Counted from the stretch's first letter, positions 1-12,513 are shown. The stretch: 64,000 nt of DNA from Armatimonadota bacterium (GCA_027451905.1 DAIDHV010000008.1:1-64000); one strand, 5' to 3'. Made by a program: numbers and translations. The notes: generated from the sequence alone by a model not told the origin.

Positions 1-430
1 TTCACATTGAACCCACCAGATCCATTGCGAGACACGTCCGCCATCATGTCACCATCCATTATAGCCATGAGCCGACACTGGTGATCCCGCCGCAGGGGAA
101 TGAGCGAAGCGAGTCGGGATTGCCGTGGGCGTCGTAGATGGGATAGACCACAACTGTATTCCCACCTGAAGTCTTGGAAATGGCATCAATGCCACGAGCC
201 CCGATTGCGTAATCGGTCACAGCCGGATTCGTCCCCAAATCCACATCTTCCATGCTTCCCGATTTCATTTCCCTCGTTTCACTCGGCGGGACGGGGCGAT
301 CAAAACTGTTCTTTGTTCGCATGGATTCGCCCCGCATCCTGCCATCATACCTATACAGGGTAGTTGAGCAGTGATAGACTTGGACACTCTCATGTCGAAG
401 CCATGGATGGCGGAGATCCCGCCGGAGCAA
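1..430 (-). pseudogene. Degenerate orphan rhs fragment (core-end segment). Nt 1-50 and ~127-290 are near-identical to 1467-1516 and 1525-1690 of the full rhs gene. It carries two extra in-frame-looking segments and a stop at ~56, and continues past the window start.
   Basis: Direct nucleotide and protein identity to the main Rhs region (TTLYRYDG...YPIYDAHGN...MMADVSRNGSGGFNV). The reading frame is broken by a stop and the N-terminus differs. Confidence 0.7.
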
Positions 431-619
431 AGCAAATCGTGACCATGGCCTGATGGCGAGCCTATGGCCTCCCCCGAATCAATATCCAGAAACTCGTTAA
501 TGAATTGTTTTTCCGCTCACTCTTTTTTCAGCTCCATATTGTTCGACGATATTGAAAATCCAGACAAGGGCCTTTTACAGGGAACCTGCCAAAAAGGAGC
601 TACGGTTATCCAATTTCAG

Positions 620-826
620 TTACTTTTCCTTTCTACCAGCCCTCCCTGCCCCCAATTTGCCCCAAATCACCTGAAGCAAGATGTTTTGCATCGGCATGGT
701 GCAAACAAAGAGGAAGCCATTGAAAGAGTCGAAATGGGCCGCCCCAATGCGAACCAGCAAGACATCAGCCGCGAAAAAAACTGAAAAGATGGATAAAGAC
801 AGCAGAGCTTTTCTGAAGTCGAACAC
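620..826 (-). CDS. Possible small 2-TM membrane protein (68 aa, GTG start 4 nt after the rhs stop). Candidate immunity protein for the Rhs C-terminal tip.
   Basis: The frame stays open immediately downstream of the rhs stop. There are two hydrophobic helices (ALLSLSIFSVFFAADVLLV; FLFVCTMPMQNILLQVIW) and a GGGGA motif 8 nt upstream of the GTG. There is no homology support. Confidence 0.3.
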   Translation of the reverse strand: MFDFRKALLSLSIFSVFFAADVLLVRIGAAHFDSFNGFLFVCTMPMQNILLQVIWGKLGAGRAGRKEK

Positions 827-830
827 CGCT

Positions 831-3800
831 TTAATCCCCTGAATCGATATCATCCAAAAATAATTCTGCTTCAATCTGTCCAGCTTCCGCTGCTGTAGCG
901 TCAACTGCCGTATTGGCGATGTCTTCACTTTCTGCGTTCAGAAGACCGAACGAGGCATTATTTGTAATGGAAGTCAGCATCTTTTCGTAGTCGCCAATAA
1001 ACCTCATATAGGAGCTTACAAAGCCTGCGCCGATGCGTATTCCGCAGGCGCCCACAGCACCTTGAACCACCGCAAATGTGCTCCAGCCAGCTAGCAGACT
1101 TTGCATGCCTAAGGCTACAAGCGCAGAACCTGATCCATCAAATCCCAGAGCGCTCTGAGCCATCCACTGTAGAAGACCAATTATAAAGCACCCTGCCGCC
1201 TGGTTAGGATCGAAGTCCTTGCCGCTGCTGTCCTCCGCATTTGGAGGGCTCGACTGGCAATATGCAAACCAATTACAGGACTGCCTTTTTGGGTCCTCGC
1301 TGATAAACCTACCCGACGTTGGTTCGTAGTATCGGGCGCGCATGTAGATAAGGCCGGATTCATCATCTTGGACGTGACCCAAGTTGGCGCAATAACGTCC
1401 TTTGGGATCGCCGCTTGTCGCGCCGCTTCTTACATTGCCCCAGGCGTCATAAGACCTCTTGTCATTCACATTGAACCCACCAGATCCATTGCGAGACACG
1501 TCCGCCATCATGTTCCCATGGGCGTCATAGATGGGATAGACCACAACCGTATTCCCGCCGGATGTTTTGGAGATAGCATCTATGCCTCTTGCACCGATCG
1601 CATAGTCAGTAATCGCCGGATTGGTCCCCAAATCCACGTCCTCCATGCTCATCTGACCATCGTACCGGTACAAGGTTGTGGAAGAACCATTGGTCTTAGA
1701 AACCCTCATCCCATCTGCACGATACAGGTAATCCCAGGTTCCTGATGTATTGGTTAAGGTTGTCATGCGGTTCAAGCAGTCCCAAGTCATCGACGTCGAC
1801 CCCGTCGTCAGCCGGTTCCCTAAGATATCAGACGTACAACTCACCCCATTGATTGTTATCGGACGATTTAAATTATCACAAACCGAATCGGTTCTATTGC
1901 CAGCCGCGTCGTAACTCCAGTTCTGAATCGCATTGGGCAGACCGTCGCCATAATTGGCACTGGTGAGATAATCAAAGTTAGGATCATAGCCATAGGTCTC
2001 GGTCCAGGTATTTCCACCTTGCCATGAGTTCATGGAACTGGTCTTCAGCCCAAGGTCAGGATCATAGGCACAAGAGTTCTCATAGATCGGGGTGCTGGTG
2101 AAGCTATTCCCATTCCAGTCATCTTGGTAATAGGTGAGATCGGTGGTTCGCCCAGCCCCATCATAGGTGTAGATCGCCCTCATTCGGCTAGAAGCAGGAT
2201 GAGTTCCATCGTAGTAGGTTTGCCCCGTGCTGGGGGTGAACCCTGGCTCGGGAGTCTGGGCAAAACAGGCCTGTTCTACCTGCCCAGCAGAGTTATAGAG
2301 GTAGTCGTACTCTTCTGCGGTCGGGTTGCCATTAGAGTCCAGCCTCGCCATTTTTTGGAATACGCGGTTAACCTTCGGGAATTGACCCACGGAAATGTAG
2401 TCGTAGTATCCCCATGTGGTTGAGCCATTTGGCGTTGTGTAGGTTGCCTCGGTCCTTGAGCCTGAGCTATCGTAGGTGTAGGTATCAGAATAGGTTCCAC
2501 CTGGGTCATTCTCGGTCACCGATTGCACCTGCCCAAGACCTGGACCTGAATTGTAATAGCCAAGGGTTTCAGTGATGCCAGAAAGTCCATCGGTAATAGA
2601 AATGGGTTGCCCATTGGTGATTCCAGCCCCACCGTAGGTGTAGTTCACCAAGTTTTCGCTTAATCCACTATCGATCCGAATTACGCTTAGGATCTTGCCG
2701 TCCGCATCGTAATTTGTTTGAAAGATGTGACCAGCGGCGTCTTGCACTTCATCGGCTTTGCCGTCGCTGGTGTAGCCAAGGGTTTTTTTTATGCGGTTGA
2801 TGCCGCCCTGATCTTCGGTCACTTGGCTTGCCTCACCCCAGCTTCCGTCGTTGTTGGCTCCGTACAGAGTTTGGGTGTGGACATAGGTCCATGGACTTGT
2901 TGATGTGCTTTGCAATTTGTAGACGTCGGTGCATCTGCCATCGCTGTCATAGGCAAACTGAGCACTGTAACCGCCATTCGGTGTGATCTGGTACTTCCAG
3001 TAGTCGCCTGTAGAGGCCCAAGCCGGCGGAGTGATTTGGGTGTTGAGAGAGAAGGCGCCATGGGCATTGTCGTAAACCTGATAAGTTTGTCCCCTGCTTC
3101 CGGCGGCGGCGGTGTTTGGGTAATAGTCGGTGTAGGAATATCGGCAGCCACCATCTGTGGTTTGGCGAACTGCCTTCTGCTGCCAGTATTTGCTTTGATC
3201 CCAATAGGCATAGTCAGTTTCCTTTGTGCTTGTGACATTTTTGACTGAATTCGCAGTCGTCGACTCAGTGACGGTTTGGCTTAATGGATTCCCAGCAAAG
3301 TTGTAGCTTGTAACGGTATCGGTCTCCCCTACATATTGAGGAATCAAAGGGTACAGATACTGGCTCGTGTCGTTTTGGCGGAGCCAATAGGAGAAGTTGT
3401 AATCTGAGTCCTCTGTCAGGTCTTGGGTCTCAATGTTGTAAAACTTATCGCTTGTCACGGAAAACGTCGTCGGGTCCACAAATCCGACATTTGATGGATC
3501 CTGCGAAGTCAACCATGTTCGGACGTCCATGACTCCATTGTTCACGTATCCCGCTGCAATGGCCACGCTATACCACTCCGAAGCTGTGTAGTTATATGGG
3601 TTAATTCCAGCTGGTACCGTGTTCATGTATTCCCAAGCTGCATTCCCACTGCCGCCGCTTTCTGGTCCGAATATTGTAGTGCTTCCGTTGGGAGCATAAA
3701 TGGCATCCACCGTGGGGGCCTCGACTTGGCCGGAATAAGGTAGCACAGTTACATATTGCATAATGTAGGAGATGCTAGTCGTAAGACCCTGCGGATTAGT

Positions 3801-4955
3801 GGTACTCGTCAGGAGGTTTGAGGCAACGTCCGGGGTGCCCTCATTGCCTGCGGCGGCAGAACCGTACCCGTAGTATGTTGTGAGACCAGCTGGGTCAGTG
3901 ACACTTGTCAGAAGATCCCCCGAGTAGCCATAAGAAACGGTTCTGCCGCACCCGTCTGTCACCGAGGAAATGTGGTTGCCAGACCAAGTAAACGAAAGTT
4001 GATGGCCGTTAGGCATCGAAACCTTTATCAGCGGATGCTCGCTTGTGACTCCATCCGACTTCTGGAAACTGACATAATTAGCGCCGTAGTTGTAATTAGT
4101 AACGTTACCCTGGCGGTCTGTGGCTGAAGTCACTTTTAAGACATTGGCGGGATATGGGGTTGCGGTTGGGTTGTTGTATGGCACCGTACCGTTGGGGTAA
4201 CTGCCTTCGGATTGATAGGTATAAGTTGTGCCATCAGGGGTGATGGTCTGATTACTTACAACAACCTGGTAAACAGCCCCATTAAACGTTACAAACTGAT
4301 ACTGAGTGTTATTGACATTGTTGTCCCAGGGAGGAGTGGTAAGCACTCCATCTACATCCCGTTGAATGGTTTCTTGATGGCCACCCGCATCGGTGGCAAC
4401 GACGGCTTGGGTGGGTTGGGCATGGACTCCGGTTGCCATTTCCGCATTTGGGTCAATTTCGGTTGGCGGCCTCTCGCGGATGGCTTTAGGAACGGCTCGA
4501 ACTGGCGCAGAAGGAGATTTTAAGAGTCCACCAGCGGTGTTCCTCACATCGCAACTCAGGGTCCAGCCGAAGCCAAGGGGCCCCTCATCCAAAGAATTCG
4601 AGCTGTAGCTACGCGTCACGTTGACGGGAATTCCGTAGCCGCCTTCAAAGTCTAGGTCGGTAGCCGAGGTAGAATAGTTTCCCGTCATCATGTCTACTCC
4701 CTTATAGATAACATCCCACTTGTTTTGCCCGGCCAGATACGGGCACTGACCAGCCCGACCAACAATCTTTTTTTGCTGAGAAACGCTGAGGACATGGGAT
4801 GCAGGCAACTTGACCTTCTTGGGCCTAATGTAGGGGGCCCTTCGGGGCTGCAAGGGGTTCCTAATAAGACCTGCAATTCCGAATGGAACTGAAGCGTTCA
4901 TCATCAGAAGCGCGGAAAAGACTGCAAATGCACGTTTGAATTTCATTGATGCCAT
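831..4955 (-). CDS. rhs: Rhs/YD-repeat polymorphic toxin (1374 aa) with an N-terminal Sec signal peptide and a C-terminal variable toxin tip (~190 aa, Gly/Ala-rich hydrophobic helices)
   Basis: Signal peptide MASMKFKRAFAVFSALLMMNASVP; FGWTLS N-domain; many YD repeats (YTYDGAGRTTDLTYY, YGYDPNFDY, WSYDAAGNRTD); Rhs core end motif YMRARYYEPTSGRFISEDP followed by a non-conserved tip. Confidence 0.92.
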   Translation of the reverse strand: MASMKFKRAFAVFSALLMMNASVPFGIAGLIRNPLQPRRAPYIRPKKVKLPASHVLSVSQQKKIVGRAGQCPYLAGQNKWDVIYKGVDMMTGNYSTSATDLDFEGGYGIPVNVTRSYSSNSLDEGPLGFGWTLSCDVRNTAGGLLKSPSAPVRAVPKAIRERPPTEIDPNAEMATGVHAQPTQAVVATDAGGHQETIQRDVDGVLTTPPWDNNVNNTQYQFVTFNGAVYQVVVSNQTITPDGTTYTYQSEGSYPNGTVPYNNPTATPYPANVLKVTSATDRQGNVTNYNYGANYVSFQKSDGVTSEHPLIKVSMPNGHQLSFTWSGNHISSVTDGCGRTVSYGYSGDLLTSVTDPAGLTTYYGYGSAAAGNEGTPDVASNLLTSTTNPQGLTTSISYIMQYVTVLPYSGQVEAPTVDAIYAPNGSTTIFGPESGGSGNAAWEYMNTVPAGINPYNYTASEWYSVAIAAGYVNNGVMDVRTWLTSQDPSNVGFVDPTTFSVTSDKFYNIETQDLTEDSDYNFSYWLRQNDTSQYLYPLIPQYVGETDTVTSYNFAGNPLSQTVTESTTANSVKNVTSTKETDYAYWDQSKYWQQKAVRQTTDGGCRYSYTDYYPNTAAAGSRGQTYQVYDNAHGAFSLNTQITPPAWASTGDYWKYQITPNGGYSAQFAYDSDGRCTDVYKLQSTSTSPWTYVHTQTLYGANNDGSWGEASQVTEDQGGINRIKKTLGYTSDGKADEVQDAAGHIFQTNYDADGKILSVIRIDSGLSENLVNYTYGGAGITNGQPISITDGLSGITETLGYYNSGPGLGQVQSVTENDPGGTYSDTYTYDSSGSRTEATYTTPNGSTTWGYYDYISVGQFPKVNRVFQKMARLDSNGNPTAEEYDYLYNSAGQVEQACFAQTPEPGFTPSTGQTYYDGTHPASSRMRAIYTYDGAGRTTDLTYYQDDWNGNSFTSTPIYENSCAYDPDLGLKTSSMNSWQGGNTWTETYGYDPNFDYLTSANYGDGLPNAIQNWSYDAAGNRTDSVCDNLNRPITINGVSCTSDILGNRLTTGSTSMTWDCLNRMTTLTNTSGTWDYLYRADGMRVSKTNGSSTTLYRYDGQMSMEDVDLGTNPAITDYAIGARGIDAISKTSGGNTVVVYPIYDAHGNMMADVSRNGSGGFNVNDKRSYDAWGNVRSGATSGDPKGRYCANLGHVQDDESGLIYMRARYYEPTSGRFISEDPKRQSCNWFAYCQSSPPNAEDSSGKDFDPNQAAGCFIIGLLQWMAQSALGFDGSGSALVALGMQSLLAGWSTFAVVQGAVGACGIRIGAGFVSSYMRFIGDYEKMLTSITNNASFGLLNAESEDIANTAVDATAAEAGQIEAELFLDDIDSGD

Positions 4956-4988: not shown

Positions 4989-5966
4989 CTAGTTGAGCGA
5001 TAAAGGTGTAAAAACGATGACGTTGGCGATAAAGTTCGACCGGGGTTTAGTCGGCAACTTCCATTGGCTTGTCGATTTTGTAAGTGGGTCATAGACTGCG
5101 ATGCTCGAGCCAGAATTCGTACAAATAACGACAAAGTGGTCTGGGGTGCTGAGGATTGCTGGCGTTGAAATATGGCTAAAGTCCTGAGAGTTCAAGGCGA
5201 GGGCATAGGATTTGACCCCAAGTTTCTCGAAGTACTCCCGGATTGCAAGCAACGAGACTCCGGCGTCTGTCCGCTTGCAGCCCTTCGCGATTTGGGCAAT
5301 TGTTTGAGGCTTGCGCCCCATCAATTGGAGGACCTTTGCCACGCACTCTGGACCGCACAAGCTGGTTTGGTAACGAATGAACTTGGTTTGGATGGCAAGA
5401 TCGTGCTGGTAGAGACTGACGTCTGCAGGGTTAATCGGGGCGCCGTCTTTAAGTCCTCCTTGAAGCCTTCTCAACCTGTCAAAACATGCCTTGCATAGTG
5501 GGCTCTTGGGGCGGGACTTCATAAAATCTCGGAATGCGGATATGGCTTGAGTCTTCTTGCCTTCTGCAACCAAGCACACATCAGCCTGGTATAGGGCTTG
5601 GTCGGATAAGCTTCCAAAGTCGGCTGAGGAAACACCGGTGCCTTTGTATGACTTTTCGGCAGCCAGAAAGGTCTTTCTCGCCGCTTCGTAGGTGCCTTTC
5701 GTAGGCTTAGCGGTGTGGTCTTTGGTGACCTCCAGAAAGCCAAGGTGCAGCTGAGCCTGAGTCACCAGATCTTGCATTGTCTTGCTGGGATTCTTTCGAT
5801 TATTGGCAATGAATTGCTGGAGGGCGGCTGGCGTGTTCGGCACTGCCCTCGATTTCGTTCGGCTGGCATGGTCGGCAGGGCTATAATGCCTCAGCGCAAA
5901 GAAGATGCCACCGGCGAGCATCACAAGAGTGCCGCTCCAGATCGCGATTCGAGTTGAACGTTTCAT
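4989..5966 (-). CDS. Membrane-anchored protein with a C-terminal papain-like peptidase C39-like domain
   Basis: N-terminal TM (IAIWSGTLVMLAGGIFFAL). C-terminal domain has Cys (SLCGPECVAKVLQLMG), His (PDHFVVI) and Asp (VYDP) in C39 order. 33 nt upstream of rhs on the same strand. Confidence 0.6.
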   Translation of the reverse strand: MKRSTRIAIWSGTLVMLAGGIFFALRHYSPADHASRTKSRAVPNTPAALQQFIANNRKNPSKTMQDLVTQAQLHLGFLEVTKDHTAKPTKGTYEAARKTFLAAEKSYKGTGVSSADFGSLSDQALYQADVCLVAEGKKTQAISAFRDFMKSRPKSPLCKACFDRLRRLQGGLKDGAPINPADVSLYQHDLAIQTKFIRYQTSLCGPECVAKVLQLMGRKPQTIAQIAKGCKRTDAGVSLLAIREYFEKLGVKSYALALNSQDFSHISTPAILSTPDHFVVICTNSGSSIAVYDPLTKSTSQWKLPTKPRSNFIANVIVFTPLSLN

Positions 5967-7354
5967 CCCTGAGTTCCAGTGGACCAGGCATTGGTCTCCG
6001 TTTCATCTACAATCCAAAGCCTTGGAATGCCGTCCGTTGTTGGCAAACCCGCATTTGGGAACTGGCTTTGATAATAGGCGTCTTCAAAGTACTGCCAGCC
6101 AACGAAGTTGTTAGAGAGCTGAGTTGCTTCATTTGCGAGTGCAACAGAGATGTTGACAGTGCCTTGAGGTGGCTGTGGCATTGTCATGTTGAGGTACTCA
6201 AGTGGTGGTGATGGGGCGGTACCGTTGATGGTAAGGTCAGTACTTTCCACCACGCCAGTTCCCGTTATGTTCCAGGCGTTTGCCCAAGTCGCGTTTCCAG
6301 GCGCCACCGCATAGTTTGGATCGGTGGCGGGAATGTAGTATCCGGCAATATCCATGGCCGCATTGTAGTTGGCATTGGGAGGTCCAAGCCTCGTGAGGGA
6401 AAGGTCAACCCAAATGGGTTTTACATACGAAATGTTCGCGCCGTAAAGTTGAAGGCGACTCGTTCCGCTCAAATCATTTGTTTGGACGAATGGGGCATTT
6501 CCAACAAATGAACCGCCGGTGTATAGCCAGTTGTAGAAGTTGATATAGTTTGCGGGGGCGTTCGCGTCGCCAGGGAGTTCTCCCGCGAGGTCAGGTTGTC
6601 CGTAGGTTTTCCTGGTGTCGATGCTTGTTGAATTTAAATTGAACCGGTTGCAGACAATTGTTCCTTCAGAGTATTGGGTTCCATTAAATAGCGTGTCGAC
6701 CTTGTTGCCGTTAGAGTCATAGTAATAGGTGTCTCCTACATCTTGGACCCCCAGGATGAGGTGATACGTGCCGCTTGACGAACCTGCTATTCGGTTTGTC
6801 AACGTATCGCCATTATTGACAATATAGCCACGAACATAGTAGTTCTGGCCAGTTTTTTGGTCATTGATGGTGGTCTCCGTGCTGGTCTCGCCTTGGTTAC
6901 TCGTTGTGAAATAGTACTCACCGGAGTTTGCGTCGATCGATGTGCAGGTCGAGTAAAGAGTTGCTGTGTAGTTGTCGTCTCTGTATTCCTGCGGGTTTGT
7001 GCCGGGAACGGCCACTCCGGAATCGTTGGCAGGAATGTTTTGTATCGTAAATTGCTGCCGAAAGGCGTGAAATTTTTCGCTTTCGTAACTCGTGGTACCC
7101 GAAGCTTCCTGGACGCCAACTAGCTCCACGTCTGGCCATACTTGGTAGCCAGTGGTTGAGCCGGTGGTGGAACCCGTCGAGGAGCCAGTCGAACTTGAGC
7201 TTGTCCCGCTCGAGCCCGTAGTTTGTGGCGGCGGCAGGACCCCCGTTGAACTTGCAATGCGATCGGAGCGGCCAAGCGCCCCAGAGACTAAGATAATCGC
7301 CACAAAAAAGGCAACGACTATTGAAATAATTTTCGCTCTCATTCTTGTCCTCAA
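5963..7354 (-). CDS. Secreted or membrane-anchored hypothetical protein with an S/T/G-rich linker and a Tyr/Asn/Gly-rich beta-rich domain
   Basis: N-terminal TM/signal (IISIVVAFFVAIILVSGALG); low-complexity STG repeats; 4-nt overlap with the downstream C39-like gene, so the same operon as rhs. Confidence 0.6.
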   Translation of the reverse strand: MRTRMRAKIISIVVAFFVAIILVSGALGRSDRIASSTGVLPPPQTTGSSGTSSSSTGSSTGSTTGSTTGYQVWPDVELVGVQEASGTTSYESEKFHAFRQQFTIQNIPANDSGVAVPGTNPQEYRDDNYTATLYSTCTSIDANSGEYYFTTSNQGETSTETTINDQKTGQNYYVRGYIVNNGDTLTNRIAGSSSGTYHLILGVQDVGDTYYYDSNGNKVDTLFNGTQYSEGTIVCNRFNLNSTSIDTRKTYGQPDLAGELPGDANAPANYINFYNWLYTGGSFVGNAPFVQTNDLSGTSRLQLYGANISYVKPIWVDLSLTRLGPPNANYNAAMDIAGYYIPATDPNYAVAPGNATWANAWNITGTGVVESTDLTINGTAPSPPLEYLNMTMPQPPQGTVNISVALANEATQLSNNFVGWQYFEDAYYQSQFPNAGLPTTDGIPRLWIVDETETNAWSTGTQG

Positions 7355-10131: not shown

Positions 10132-12513
10132 CTATTTTTGTGTGATGGTCGGTGAAAAGACAGCAATTTTACTAATTTTCATCATTTTGCCTTCCGAATC
10201 TTCGATTCGAATGAACCTAGCTGTAACAATAGGCCCATAGTACCTTACGACAAAGTTCCCATCTTCCGGTTGGCTTCGGTTTGCAATGGTCCAAGCAAGG
10301 TCTGGTTCTGAGCTCCAATCGATAGCGTTTTGCACGGTCTCCCCCGTGTTGTAAACCAACACCTTAAATGGCCCCGCAGAAGGCTTACCGGTAAAGACAA
10401 TGTCAATTTCACCCAAGCGGCGGTCTCGATGCAAATCCCACTCTGCCCACTGGTTAGAAGGACCGAGTTGGATGGAGGAGGGATCCGAGGCAGCATCGGC
10501 CTGAGTGACAGCAGCGTTTTCTGCATAGTTTTGAGACTGATCTATAGGTTGGCTTGGCAGGGCAAAATGAAGATCACAAAACGCGACGGTTTGGTCTCCA
10601 CGGTAAGCGGATTCTAGCATCGAACTTGCCGTCATAAGTGCCCAGCCAGAAGAGTTGCCAAGGACCATGTGCACCGCAAACGAGCCGTCTCCTTCTAAGC
10701 GATTGGTGCCAAACGGATTCCGCCCCGAACCGCCAGAAGACATTGGCTGATTAGGCAGCAGAGCACTGCCAGATTGATCAGTCTTTAAGGAAAATTCTTT
10801 GGTTGGGCTAACCTTTCCATCAACAACCCGATAAAAATCCATTTCTGAGTTTTTGAGGGTAAAGCCATTGGCTCCGTACGCCCTTACCAAGATGAGGTGA
10901 GGAAATTGGGAAGCGGCGCTTGGCTGGATGGGATTCCTCTGAGAAGTTGGTTTGGAAACAAGGTCGTTGAGCTGTCCTACCGTTACAAGGCCAAGAGGAC
11001 CATAAGGCGAGGACGGCACCGCAAGCAGGTAAGGAACTTGGTAAGCCTGCTGCGGCAGCTGCAAACTTGGCGGAAGTTGCCCTTCATAGCGACGATCCCC
11101 GCCTAAGAGTCCGCCATACCAGTAGGTTCCTCCCCCATAAAATCCGTTCTTCTGATCCAGTGGCAAAGGACTATCGGCAATCTGCTCCTTGCCAAAATCG
11201 GTGGCTCCTGCTGCTTCCAATGACATTTGCATGAGCTTCTTCAATTGATGCGGATCCTCTAAGCTGCCACTTTTGAGGGGCAGAACCAGATCACCTGTTC
11301 CCGGCTGTCCCAGGTCTGGTTGAAGTTGAATCCGCTCCATGCAGCCAGCAGGGCTAAACGAAAATCGACTGCGATCAAGAGCCTTATTGCAAAGGGAGCT
11401 TAGCTTAAGAAGCAGCTTGCTTGCTTCCTTTTTTGGCAGGTCTGATTGCACGGGAATGGCAAATCCATTAGGGAAGAAAACCGCACTTCCATATTCGGCA
11501 GACGCTTGATTGCCTCCCAACCAGAAATTGATTTTCCCTGCCCTTGGGTCCTGCGGGTTAGGCAATGCGCAAGGCAAATCTGCCTTAAAGGTTGCCCCTG
11601 CCGATAAGGAAGGAACGTTTGCAACGGGCATGGAAATCCCATCCATGAGTTGGTGCAGTGCGCACGGCGAGGAAGGTCCCTTGCCTAGATTGCTCACTTC
11701 AACGGTCAGAGCGTCAGAACCCGGTGCCCTTGAGACACCAACGATCTCTAGCTTAGCGGCAGAAATTGTCGGCTCGGTTTCCTTCACATAGGTAATTTCT
11801 AACTGAGGCTGAGCAGAGCCATCTTCACTGGATGCAAATTCACAGGGGCCAGAAAATTGAAGAGCAAAGCCAAAATTTAGCCACGGCTTCTCCACAAATT
11901 TCTGAATCTGAGGGGCCAAGCCTTCGACAACAAAATTCCCGGTGCCAGTCGGATGAGCCTTCACCGGCAAGACCTGAATATCTTGAGGACCCATTGCCCC
12001 TGGGGTTGACCATTTGGCACCCTTGATTCCAAATTCCGATGTTAACCAGGTTGCTCCGCCAATAGGAGCCCTCGAAACCGCAAGGCTTGGTGGTTTGACG
12101 GGAGCCGTAGCGGGGCCAAGGTGGGGCAAATTAAGGGTCAAAGCCGGCCCTTCACCCCACGGCCTGAGCAGTTCACCAAAAGTTGTTAATTGAGGGGTGT
12201 CTGGAGATGACTGAGTGAAGATAATTTTGGCGTCAAGGACCTTGGCATGAGCACCAAGCAACCTTTGAAGCTGACCAAAACGAATGAGAATGGTCTTTCC
12301 GGTACCACCAGATAGAGAATATAACCCCCCTTCAGACTTGGTAGGCTCCGCGTTATCAAGGGTTGTATCCTCAACGTCGCAACCCATCAATGGATCGTTG
12401 ACCGCAACATACTTCCCTCCCGCTTCGGCGACCTCGATTCTCCCACGCTGATAGCGCAATTGGAAGGTCGGTTGGTTTTGGTTGTGGCGAAGGGCAAGAA
12501 TGCCGCAGATCAT
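10132..12513 (-). CDS. Large hypothetical protein with a C-terminal F5/8 type C (discoidin)-like carbohydrate-binding domain
   Basis: C-terminal ...AEWDLHRDRRLGEIDIV...FVVRYYGPIVTARFIRI resembles the discoidin fold. The N-terminal MICG is not a genuine Ntn amidotransferase start. Confidence 0.5.
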   Translation of the reverse strand: MICGILALRHNQNQPTFQLRYQRGRIEVAEAGGKYVAVNDPLMGCDVEDTTLDNAEPTKSEGGLYSLSGGTGKTILIRFGQLQRLLGAHAKVLDAKIIFTQSSPDTPQLTTFGELLRPWGEGPALTLNLPHLGPATAPVKPPSLAVSRAPIGGATWLTSEFGIKGAKWSTPGAMGPQDIQVLPVKAHPTGTGNFVVEGLAPQIQKFVEKPWLNFGFALQFSGPCEFASSEDGSAQPQLEITYVKETEPTISAAKLEIVGVSRAPGSDALTVEVSNLGKGPSSPCALHQLMDGISMPVANVPSLSAGATFKADLPCALPNPQDPRAGKINFWLGGNQASAEYGSAVFFPNGFAIPVQSDLPKKEASKLLLKLSSLCNKALDRSRFSFSPAGCMERIQLQPDLGQPGTGDLVLPLKSGSLEDPHQLKKLMQMSLEAAGATDFGKEQIADSPLPLDQKNGFYGGGTYWYGGLLGGDRRYEGQLPPSLQLPQQAYQVPYLLAVPSSPYGPLGLVTVGQLNDLVSKPTSQRNPIQPSAASQFPHLILVRAYGANGFTLKNSEMDFYRVVDGKVSPTKEFSLKTDQSGSALLPNQPMSSGGSGRNPFGTNRLEGDGSFAVHMVLGNSSGWALMTASSMLESAYRGDQTVAFCDLHFALPSQPIDQSQNYAENAAVTQADAASDPSSIQLGPSNQWAEWDLHRDRRLGEIDIVFTGKPSAGPFKVLVYNTGETVQNAIDWSSEPDLAWTIANRSQPEDGNFVVRYYGPIVTARFIRIEDSEGKMMKISKIAVFSPTITQK

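Follow-up and report, generated by a model that had tools for sequence, protein, structure and literature searches.

The DNA considered here is a stretch of 64,000 nucleotides (nt), hereafter the window, from an Armatimonadota bacterium (GCA_027451905.1, contig DAIDHV010000008.1, positions 1-64000). Near its start lies a gene for an Rhs protein, followed by a small open reading frame (ORF) and then by a second, degenerate copy of the Rhs core end. All features of this locus are on the minus strand, and the central ones are the following.

831-4955, minus strand: main Rhs gene, 1374 amino acids (aa), from the ORF call and domain matches; from N- to C-terminus a signal-peptide-like segment, a DUF6531 plug, a YD/RHS shell, an RHS-associated core and a tip
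1221-1451, minus strand: RHS repeat-associated core domain, aa 1169-1245, from TIGR03696, alignment and PDB matches
834-1217, minus strand: predicted released tip, D1247-D1374, 128 aa, from hydrophobicity, charge and codon score
620-826, minus strand: candidate immunity ORF, 68 aa, GTG start, from position, predicted hairpin and codon score

The main gene has the domains of an Rhs polymorphic toxin. DUF6531 is matched at aa 87-138 (Pfam, E=5.7e-11), RHS_repeat is found above its family cutoff (Pfam, E=8.4e-6), marking the YD/RHS shell, and the TIGR03696 core domain scores 57.8 bits at aa 1169-1245 against a cutoff of 32.5 (NCBIfam). The last 456 aa have 605 relatives at E<=1e-5, and those that are named come from Fimbriimonadaceae, Fimbriimonas or metagenome-assembled genomes (MAGs) of Armatimonadetes. 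The features of a type VI secretion system (T6SS) effector were not found, as Pfam gave no PAAR match in the protein and the N-terminus is signal-peptide-like. The surrounding genes encode a C39 peptidase, a 463-aa protein and housekeeping functions, with no T6SS genes adjoining, and the 64-kb window holds no Rhs sequence other than the main gene and the degenerate copy. Judged by its sequence, the protein belongs with the Rhs polymorphic toxins: repeats, core domain and variable tip are present, together with a putative variant of the cleavage motif. The locus would encode a Sec-type, T6SS-independent Rhs toxin of a Fimbriimonadaceae-like Armatimonadota bacterium.

An initial annotation of this DNA had taken RARYYEPTSGRFISEDP as the end of the core. 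This motif is present (aa 1206-1222), but the core runs on to K1246: the conserved part of the protein reaches ...NWFAYCQSSPPNAEDSSGK at aa 1246, and the core end lies 23 aa past ...EDP (D1242-S-S-G-K1246). In Tse5 and the enterobacterial Rhs proteins, the tip is released by an aspartyl protease with the motif DPxG-X18/19-DPxG(L) (PMC10684867). The motif here is D1221-PKR-X17-D1242-SSG-K, which differs from the canonical form in its prolines, glycines, spacer length and final leucine. The two aspartates (D1221, nt 1293-1295; D1242, nt 1230-1232) and G1245 are invariant in 20 relatives (alignment positions D303, D324 and G327), and a PDB sequence search matches this core end to those of Tse5 and Tse15. 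The motif would be this clade's version of the Rhs aspartyl-protease motif, with cleavage predicted after K1246.

The tip is 152 aa long when counted from ...ISEDP and ~128 aa from the predicted cleavage site, shorter than the ~190 aa of the initial annotation, in which it looked like a membrane-active toxin. Its first ~70-75 residues are uncharged and rich in glycine and alanine, with three moderately hydrophobic stretches (helices at ~nt 996-1199) whose Kyte-Doolittle peaks over 19 residues are 1.36, 1.60 and 1.49. The last 54 residues (nt 834-995), which finish with ...ELFLDDIDSGD, are strongly acidic, at net charge -12. On a codon-usage score for which 30 long ORFs from the window served as the training set, the tip is typical of real genes.

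The small ORF behind the tip is as first annotated: it starts at a GTG 4 nt past the Rhs stop, encodes 68 aa and has two hydrophobic segments. This GTG is preceded at a distance of 8 nt by the sequence AGGGGA, and an alternative ATG (851-853), 27 nt upstream, would give a product of 77 aa overlapping the 3' end of the Rhs gene. Topology analysis, which the initial annotation had proposed, predicts a two-helix hairpin that follows the positive-inside rule, with end and loop charges of +2 / -1 / +4 placing both termini inside. The AlphaFold2 (AF2) model has helices at 4-36 and 39-71, with a predicted local distance difference test (pLDDT) of 68.6. An open frame of 68 codons has no significance by itself; the codon score of this one (0.116 per codon) is the best of the six frames and above that of 99.3% of wrong-frame chunks. 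Its position, the hydrophobic hairpin and the codon score together speak for more than a chance ORF, and by analogy with Tsi5 (see below) it probably protects the producer against the tip.

The same architecture recurs in related genomes. A pattern scan across GTDB species genomes yielded 71 loci. Almost all of them are titled as Armatimonadota (Fimbriimonadales, Chthonomonas), and two of the records are labelled as archaeal MAGs. These loci contain 118 modules of core end plus tip, and the tips are almost all of 105-140 aa. Arrays of 2-9 modules at a spacing of ~1.0-2 kb are the rule (e.g. loci L019, L023, L025 and L039), including in complete chromosomes. In locus L072, the public gene calls give a main Rhs gene followed by several orphan ORFs of 368-530 aa, each with a small gene behind it. 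An ATGA overlap is seen at the start of 23 of 100 downstream ORFs. Relatives that are 45-75% identical in the core carry unrelated tips, so the C-terminus is hypervariable, and only 37 similar pairs occur among the 118 tips. Where tips are closely related (54-100% identity, 4 pairs), their downstream ORFs are related too.

The type of tip goes with the type of ORF that follows it. With crude ORF calling and a crude hydrophobicity threshold, tips with at least two hydrophobic segments are followed by an ORF with at least two in 63 of 73 cases, and less hydrophobic tips by a soluble ORF product in 21 of 27 (Fisher p=2.9e-9 for the pairing overall). About 70% of the clade's tips have at least two hydrophobic segments, and the entire repertoire is uncharacterised.

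Common endings are also found on tips that are otherwise unrelated: at many loci, and at 834-870 of the window, an acidic tail comes after either the hydrophobic helix ...AYSLxxLGxLxAxD/E or the sequence ...LDDIDS(E/GD). Aspartate and glutamate make up 17.7% of the last 12 residues of the clade's tips and 7.7% elsewhere. Acidic tails as a by-product of purine-rich ribosome-binding sites for the next gene were considered, but Shine-Dalgarno-like 4-mers ahead of the following ORF are only mildly enriched (37% vs 24% background). Membership of the window's tip in a family with a similar ...LDDIDSE ending was rejected, as it scores 1.6 bits against the hidden Markov model of that family.

Downstream of the candidate immunity ORF, a second copy of the core end occupies positions 1 to ~393. 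Its homology starts at MRVSK (position 393, equivalent to aa 1083 of the main protein) and reaches position 1, which agrees with the earlier description of an orphan that runs beyond the window. Its parts, and two related segments, are the following.

335-393, minus strand: orphan proximal fragment with the MRVSK start, strongly diverged
257-334, minus strand: insert 1, 78 nt, in frame, adding 26 codons between YDG and SMEDVD
119-256, minus strand: orphan middle fragment, SMEDVD...YPIYDAHGN
48-118 (or 57-127, with a 9-nt ambiguity of placement), minus strand: insert 2, 71 nt, frame-shifting, with an in-frame stop TAA at 59-61
1-59, minus strand: orphan distal part, in which ATG 57-59 overlaps the TAA and opens MDGDMMADVSRNGSGGFNV..., running off the window
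1465-1513, minus strand: partner, in the main gene, of an exact 49-nt tract
469-501, minus strand: possible relic of the 3' end of another tip, INEFLDIDSGE (in the main gene ...ELFLDDIDSGD), matching at 15 of 17 nt

This is a 5'-truncated core-end fragment on the same strand as the main gene and downstream of its immunity candidate, as in known rhs orphans. Its frame is interrupted between 393 and 1 by a 1-nt deletion between MRVSK and TTLYRYDG, which shifts the frame, and by the 71-nt insert and the stop. From ATG 57-59 onwards the frame is that of the core and is open to the window edge (the last 57 nt, 19 codons in view). The initial annotation had positions 1-290 repeating 1467-1740 almost exactly, with two extra segments of 75-84 nt and a stop. 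Two inserts and a stop are indeed there, but the inserts measure 71 and 78 nt and the 1-nt deletion comes in addition. The near-exact repeat shrinks to 49 nt (1-49 against 1465-1513, 100% identity), whereas the next segment (126-256 against 1519-1649, ~135 nt) is ~80-82% identical and 335-393 is far more diverged. In the related arrays, adjacent core-end copies have a median nt identity of 78%, and exact tracts of at least 40 nt are found in 23 of 67 pairs; an exact patch of 49 nt in a background of ~80% is therefore typical of such arrays. The patch looks like the product of patchy gene conversion.

We consider it probable, with a good measure of doubt, that the locus encodes an Rhs toxin with a membrane-active tip, an adjacent two-helix immunity protein and a decayed orphan that is usable for tip switching. 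The initial annotation came to the same overall reading (Rhs toxin, small membrane immunity gene, decayed orphan), and it fits the anatomy of the locus, the 118 modules in 71 loci and the precedent of Tse5-CT/Tsi5 from Pseudomonas aeruginosa. If it behaves like Tse5, RhsA and the Tc toxins, the Rhs protein would cleave itself after K1246 and carry the 128-aa tip inside its shell. The tip is inferred to act as a toxin by inserting in the target membrane, from its composition, the pairing across the clade and the precedent of Tse5-CT/Tsi5: its three Gly/Ala-rich helices would enter the cytoplasmic membrane of the target and dissipate its potential. Composition and pairing likewise suggest that the translationally adjacent two-helix protein of 68 or 77 aa would neutralise the tip in the membrane of the producer.

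In Salmonella, orphans allow tip and immunity gene to be swapped by recombination (PMC3967940). Here, a RecA-type exchange that uses the tract shared by 1465-1513 and 1-49, or additional homology past the window, would fuse the intact main gene to whichever tip and immunity gene follow the orphan. Such a crossover would delete 1,464 bp, and with them what is left of the main core end, the tip, the present immunity candidate and the decayed fragments. As all lesions of the orphan lie 5' of the 49-nt tract, the crossover would discard them.

A number of results weigh against this account. Only one segment of the tip reaches the usual transmembrane threshold of 1.6 on the Kyte-Doolittle scale; at the threshold of the pairing test, the tip of the window has one hydrophobic segment and its ORF two, which puts them in a minority cell. 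The single-sequence AF2 model of the tip is all-helical but of low confidence (pLDDT 52). A motif search found no GxxxGxxxG zipper in the tip (one GxxxG, no [GAS]xxxGxxxG), and small-xxx-small-xxx-small patterns occur twice where 5.6 are expected from composition. The Tox-WTIP motifs RxxR and Wx[ST]IP are also absent from the tip by regular-expression search, with no Pfam match. Among true-gene chunks the small ORF ranks no higher than the 12th percentile in codon score, two plus-strand ORFs across the same DNA also outscore most wrong-frame chunks, and no promoter or terminator consensus was found at the locus. As for the orphan, the exact match is limited to 49 nt inside the window, and its tip and immunity gene would lie beyond position 1, outside the DNA read.

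Homology searches with the tip and the small ORF also count on this side. No relative of either was found by word-indexed search of 5.8e9 clusters, by exhaustive phmmer across 1.84e9 representatives, in a back-translated scan of JGI contigs, by tblastn of the 71 related loci, or in Pfam, NCBIfam and PADLOC; PHROGs gave a lone match with E=0.005, which was disregarded, to a family without known function. A PDB sequence search with the tip gave no homologue and no Tse5 chain at E<=1. None of 115 clade tips matches Pfam at E<=1e-3, and a control that expected the soluble tips of the clade to match known toxin families failed with this same count (0/115), so their reading as toxins comes from the architecture. 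The conservation of the pair is then one of position and architecture, without co-conservation of sequence. The initial annotation had named a lack of conservation of the small ORF as a sign against its own reading; this lack is real at the level of sequence but is contradicted by position and architecture.

The same results bear on whether the tip acts on membranes at all. It could be a soluble toxin, a non-toxic cargo or another kind of domain, with 620-826 being a chance ORF or encoding an unrelated membrane protein; we regard this as rather unlikely. The single segment at 1.6, the highly acidic C-terminal 54 aa, the missing zipper and WTIP motifs and the want of homologues would all suit it, and open frames of 68 codons are not rare, with the codon score of this one being marginal. 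Against it stand the strong positional pairing in the clade between the type of tip and the type of downstream ORF, the positive-inside hairpin, the start 4 nt past the Rhs stop with AGGGGA upstream, and the precedent of Tse5/Tsi5.

With regard to the orphan, it is conceivable, although we put it clearly below an even chance, that it is a dead relic which is no longer a switching cassette, and that the 49-nt identity is a residual patch of gene conversion without functional consequence. The frameshift, the 78-nt insert, the 71-nt insert with its stop and a low codon score are all as expected of a relic, and similar split or frameshifted fragments are present in related arrays (L003, L022, L026 and L039). 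The segment at 469-501 may be a further relic, but its match is not significant by itself (score 24; mean 18 and maximum 25 in 200 shuffles). A usable cassette, as in the reading we prefer, is suggested by the position of the lesions, all 5' of the exact tract and removable by crossover, by the frame from ATG 57-59 being open to the window edge, and by the frequency of exact tracts in the ~78%-identical copies of related arrays, which suggests ongoing exchange.

About eight truncated orphans in the clade (L019, L026, L046, L050, L064, L065, L066 and L071) have an in-frame stop just upstream and, as their first start, the Met of ...YDAHGNM... The ATG at 57-59 of the window is at the place equivalent to this conserved Met, at which translation of orphan tips may start internally time and again. 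The distal orphan could be translated alone, from ATG 57-59 (or the HGNM Met), and act as an internal toxin-antitoxin pair with its immunity gene instead of being a silent cassette. We think this improbable. At the TAATG stop-start overlap, MDGDMMADV... begins in the core frame, the related orphans have a conserved Met as first start after an in-frame stop, and there is a precedent in the Rhs orphans of Salmonella (PMC7043789). However, no Shine-Dalgarno-like sequence precedes ATG 57-59 and no promoter consensus was found, only 19 codons are visible, and the pattern in the relatives could reflect where truncations fall.

The position of the orphan at the very start of the window raises the question of an assembly artefact. 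The graph path for 1 to ~55 could have run through a repeat that also occurs in the main gene and been joined wrongly to the diverged fragment, or the whole orphan could be a chimera of strain variants where a contig ends. The exact tract starts right at position 1 of the window, and many related loci end inside Rhs repeats. This explanation is very unlikely: 56-393 is clearly distinct (80% identity plus unique inserts) and is no collapsed copy, and the layout, with a spacing of 1,342-1,464 nt and a truncated core end after the immunity ORF, recurs in dozens of independent assemblies, among them the complete chromosomes CP075366, CP075364 and CP021423.

The two inserts were compared with each other, with the segment upstream of the orphan, with the whole main gene in both orientations, with neighbouring segments of the main gene, with the rest of the window and with the 71 loci, and no significant match was found. 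The match expected if insert 2 were an older copy of MMADVSRNGSGGF was not significant (p=0.16). The folding z-scores of the inserts are between -1 and +1, no better than shuffles, and Rfam gave nothing real. Their termini have no clear terminal inverted repeats, and in the 9-nt "duplication" on either side of insert 2 only 4 of the 9 positions agree. The 8-mer CGGCGGGA is over-represented: the first 1.6 kb contain 4 copies, and the window as a whole has 10 where 2.5 are expected. No element could be defined from it, and one copy just encodes SGGN in the main gene.

Upstream of the Rhs gene, two further genes and a motif at the Rhs N-terminus are associated with the toxin.

4989-5966, minus strand: C39-type cysteine peptidase of 325 aa with a membrane anchor, encoded upstream of Rhs in the same operon (PF03412, E=7.8e-11)
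5963-7354, minus strand: gene preceding that of the C39 peptidase; its product of 463 aa has a region rich in Ser/Thr and a signal or anchor segment
4755-4790, minus strand: double-glycine-leader-like motif LSVSQQKKIVGR, aa 56-67 of Rhs, between the signal peptide and the DUF6531 plug

In the C39 protein, C204, H277 and D293 are at least 95% conserved (23 homologues). In the window and the fetched loci together, 23 of 24 full-length Rhs ORFs have its gene as their immediate upstream neighbour, and the one exception has no upstream sequence. The gene of the 463-aa protein, for which no Pfam family scores above cutoff, is likewise present at ~20 of the 24, and the order of 463-aa gene, C39 gene and Rhs gene is conserved (loci L002-L060). 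A further ORF near the locus, of 793 aa (10132-12513, minus strand), has no Pfam family at E<=1e-5.

C39 peptidases cut double-glycine leaders of the form LSXXELXXIXGG (PMC1538908). The Rhs motif is parallel to these leaders, except that its last residue is Arg or Lys. The pattern L[ST]xxE[LM]xx[LIM]xG[RK] at ~aa 50-75 of Rhs is found in its strict form in 14 of 21 full-length Rhs proteins (that of the window and 20 related ones) and in a loose form in all 21, whereas a control of 25,962 residues gave 0 strict and 3 loose matches. This suggests that maturation or release of the exported Rhs protein may be the task of the C39 protein, with the leader-like motif as a possible cleavage site. No paper linking C39 peptidases to Rhs processing was found in the literature searched. 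More tentatively, and at less than even probability, there may be an Armatimonadota-wide route for Rhs that is processed by C39 and independent of the T6SS, with the 463-aa protein as a secreted partner, delivering very diverse tips of ~105-140 aa, mostly hydrophobic with several helices and none of them in a Pfam family, each with a small membrane protein.

Such a route, if true, would mean T6SS-independent, C39-processed delivery of Rhs and new families of membrane-targeting toxins. The combination of a C39 gene with a bacteriocin-leader-like motif gives a testable hypothesis for the maturation or release of Sec-type Rhs without a T6SS. This association and the dominance of uncharacterised hydrophobic tips, both outside the coordinates that were first annotated, are the most interesting material of the locus. 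The locus itself is typical of the well-known main/orphan scheme of Rhs, to which it adds, from an under-studied phylum, a tip and immunity pair that are sequence orphans and whose function we infer.

The closest characterised analogue is Tse5-CT/Tsi5 of P. aeruginosa. Tse5-CT is a helical, hydrophobic Rhs tip of ~16 kDa that forms ion-selective pores, and Tsi5 has two predicted transmembrane helices (PMC9637101). Tse5 (RhsP1, PA2684) shares with the protein described here the Rhs cocoon, the N-terminal DUF6531 plug and a C-terminal plug, predicted here to be an aspartyl protease as in Tse5 (PMC10684867). Both have a small (~13-16 kDa), hydrophobic tip without enzymatic signature, which is helical (by prediction here), and behind it a protein with two predicted transmembrane helices. 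The tips have no sequence similarity, and the N-terminus is signal-peptide-like here, whereas Tse5 has a PAAR-like domain with VgrG and the T6SS. The motifs differ as well, DPXG-X19-DPXG in Tse5 and DPKR-X17-DSSG here, and pore formation is a property of Tse5, set against predicted helices and hydrophobicity in the present tip. Should this tip form pores, Tse5 would no longer be the sole membrane toxin carried inside an Rhs shell but would have an unrelated counterpart, and tips of this kind would be shown to dominate the Rhs arsenals of Armatimonadota.

The main/orphan rhs-CT systems of enterobacteria (Salmonella Typhimurium, E. coli and Serratia) also have a 5'-truncated core-end fragment downstream of the immunity gene (PMC3967940), and their orphans may be expressed internally (PMC7043789). 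The present locus differs from them in its phylum, in having no T6SS context, and in the two inserts, stop and frameshift and the 49 nt of exact homology of its orphan.

The tips of WapA are nucleases, and their immunity proteins are soluble. The Sec-dependent YD/Rhs toxins of the WapA type (WapA/WapI of B. subtilis; WapA of S. suis, PMC12704120) resemble the present locus in their N-terminal signal sequence, their lack of T6SS adaptors and their polymorphic C-terminal toxin with an adjacent immunity gene. They differ in that the Rhs protein here comes with a gene for a C39 peptidase and has, in its pro-region, a motif like that of double-glycine leaders.

Among membrane-active toxins, Tox-WTIP (Zhang et al. 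2012), whose first helix has RxxR and whose second has Wx[ST]IP (PMC3482391), and CdiA-CT(EC93)/Imm-CdiI are likewise small, hydrophobic two-helix domains on RHS or CdiA proteins that are predicted to form pores, and Imm-CdiI has two transmembrane segments. Their motifs and Pfam match are absent here, and those families are restricted to proteobacteria. The glycine-zipper LXG toxins of the type VII secretion system (EsxX, PMC12744356; TspA/TsaI, PMC9484751) are similar in their hydrophobic, depolarising C-terminus, their membrane immunity protein and their polymorphic arrays of immunity genes shaped by recombination, but they have an LXG carrier, use another secretion system and carry the GxxxGxxxG zipper that the present tip lacks. 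By sequence comparison, this tip is outside both Tox-WTIP and the glycine-zipper toxins and is unrelated to Tse5-CT, the toxin that it most resembles in architecture.

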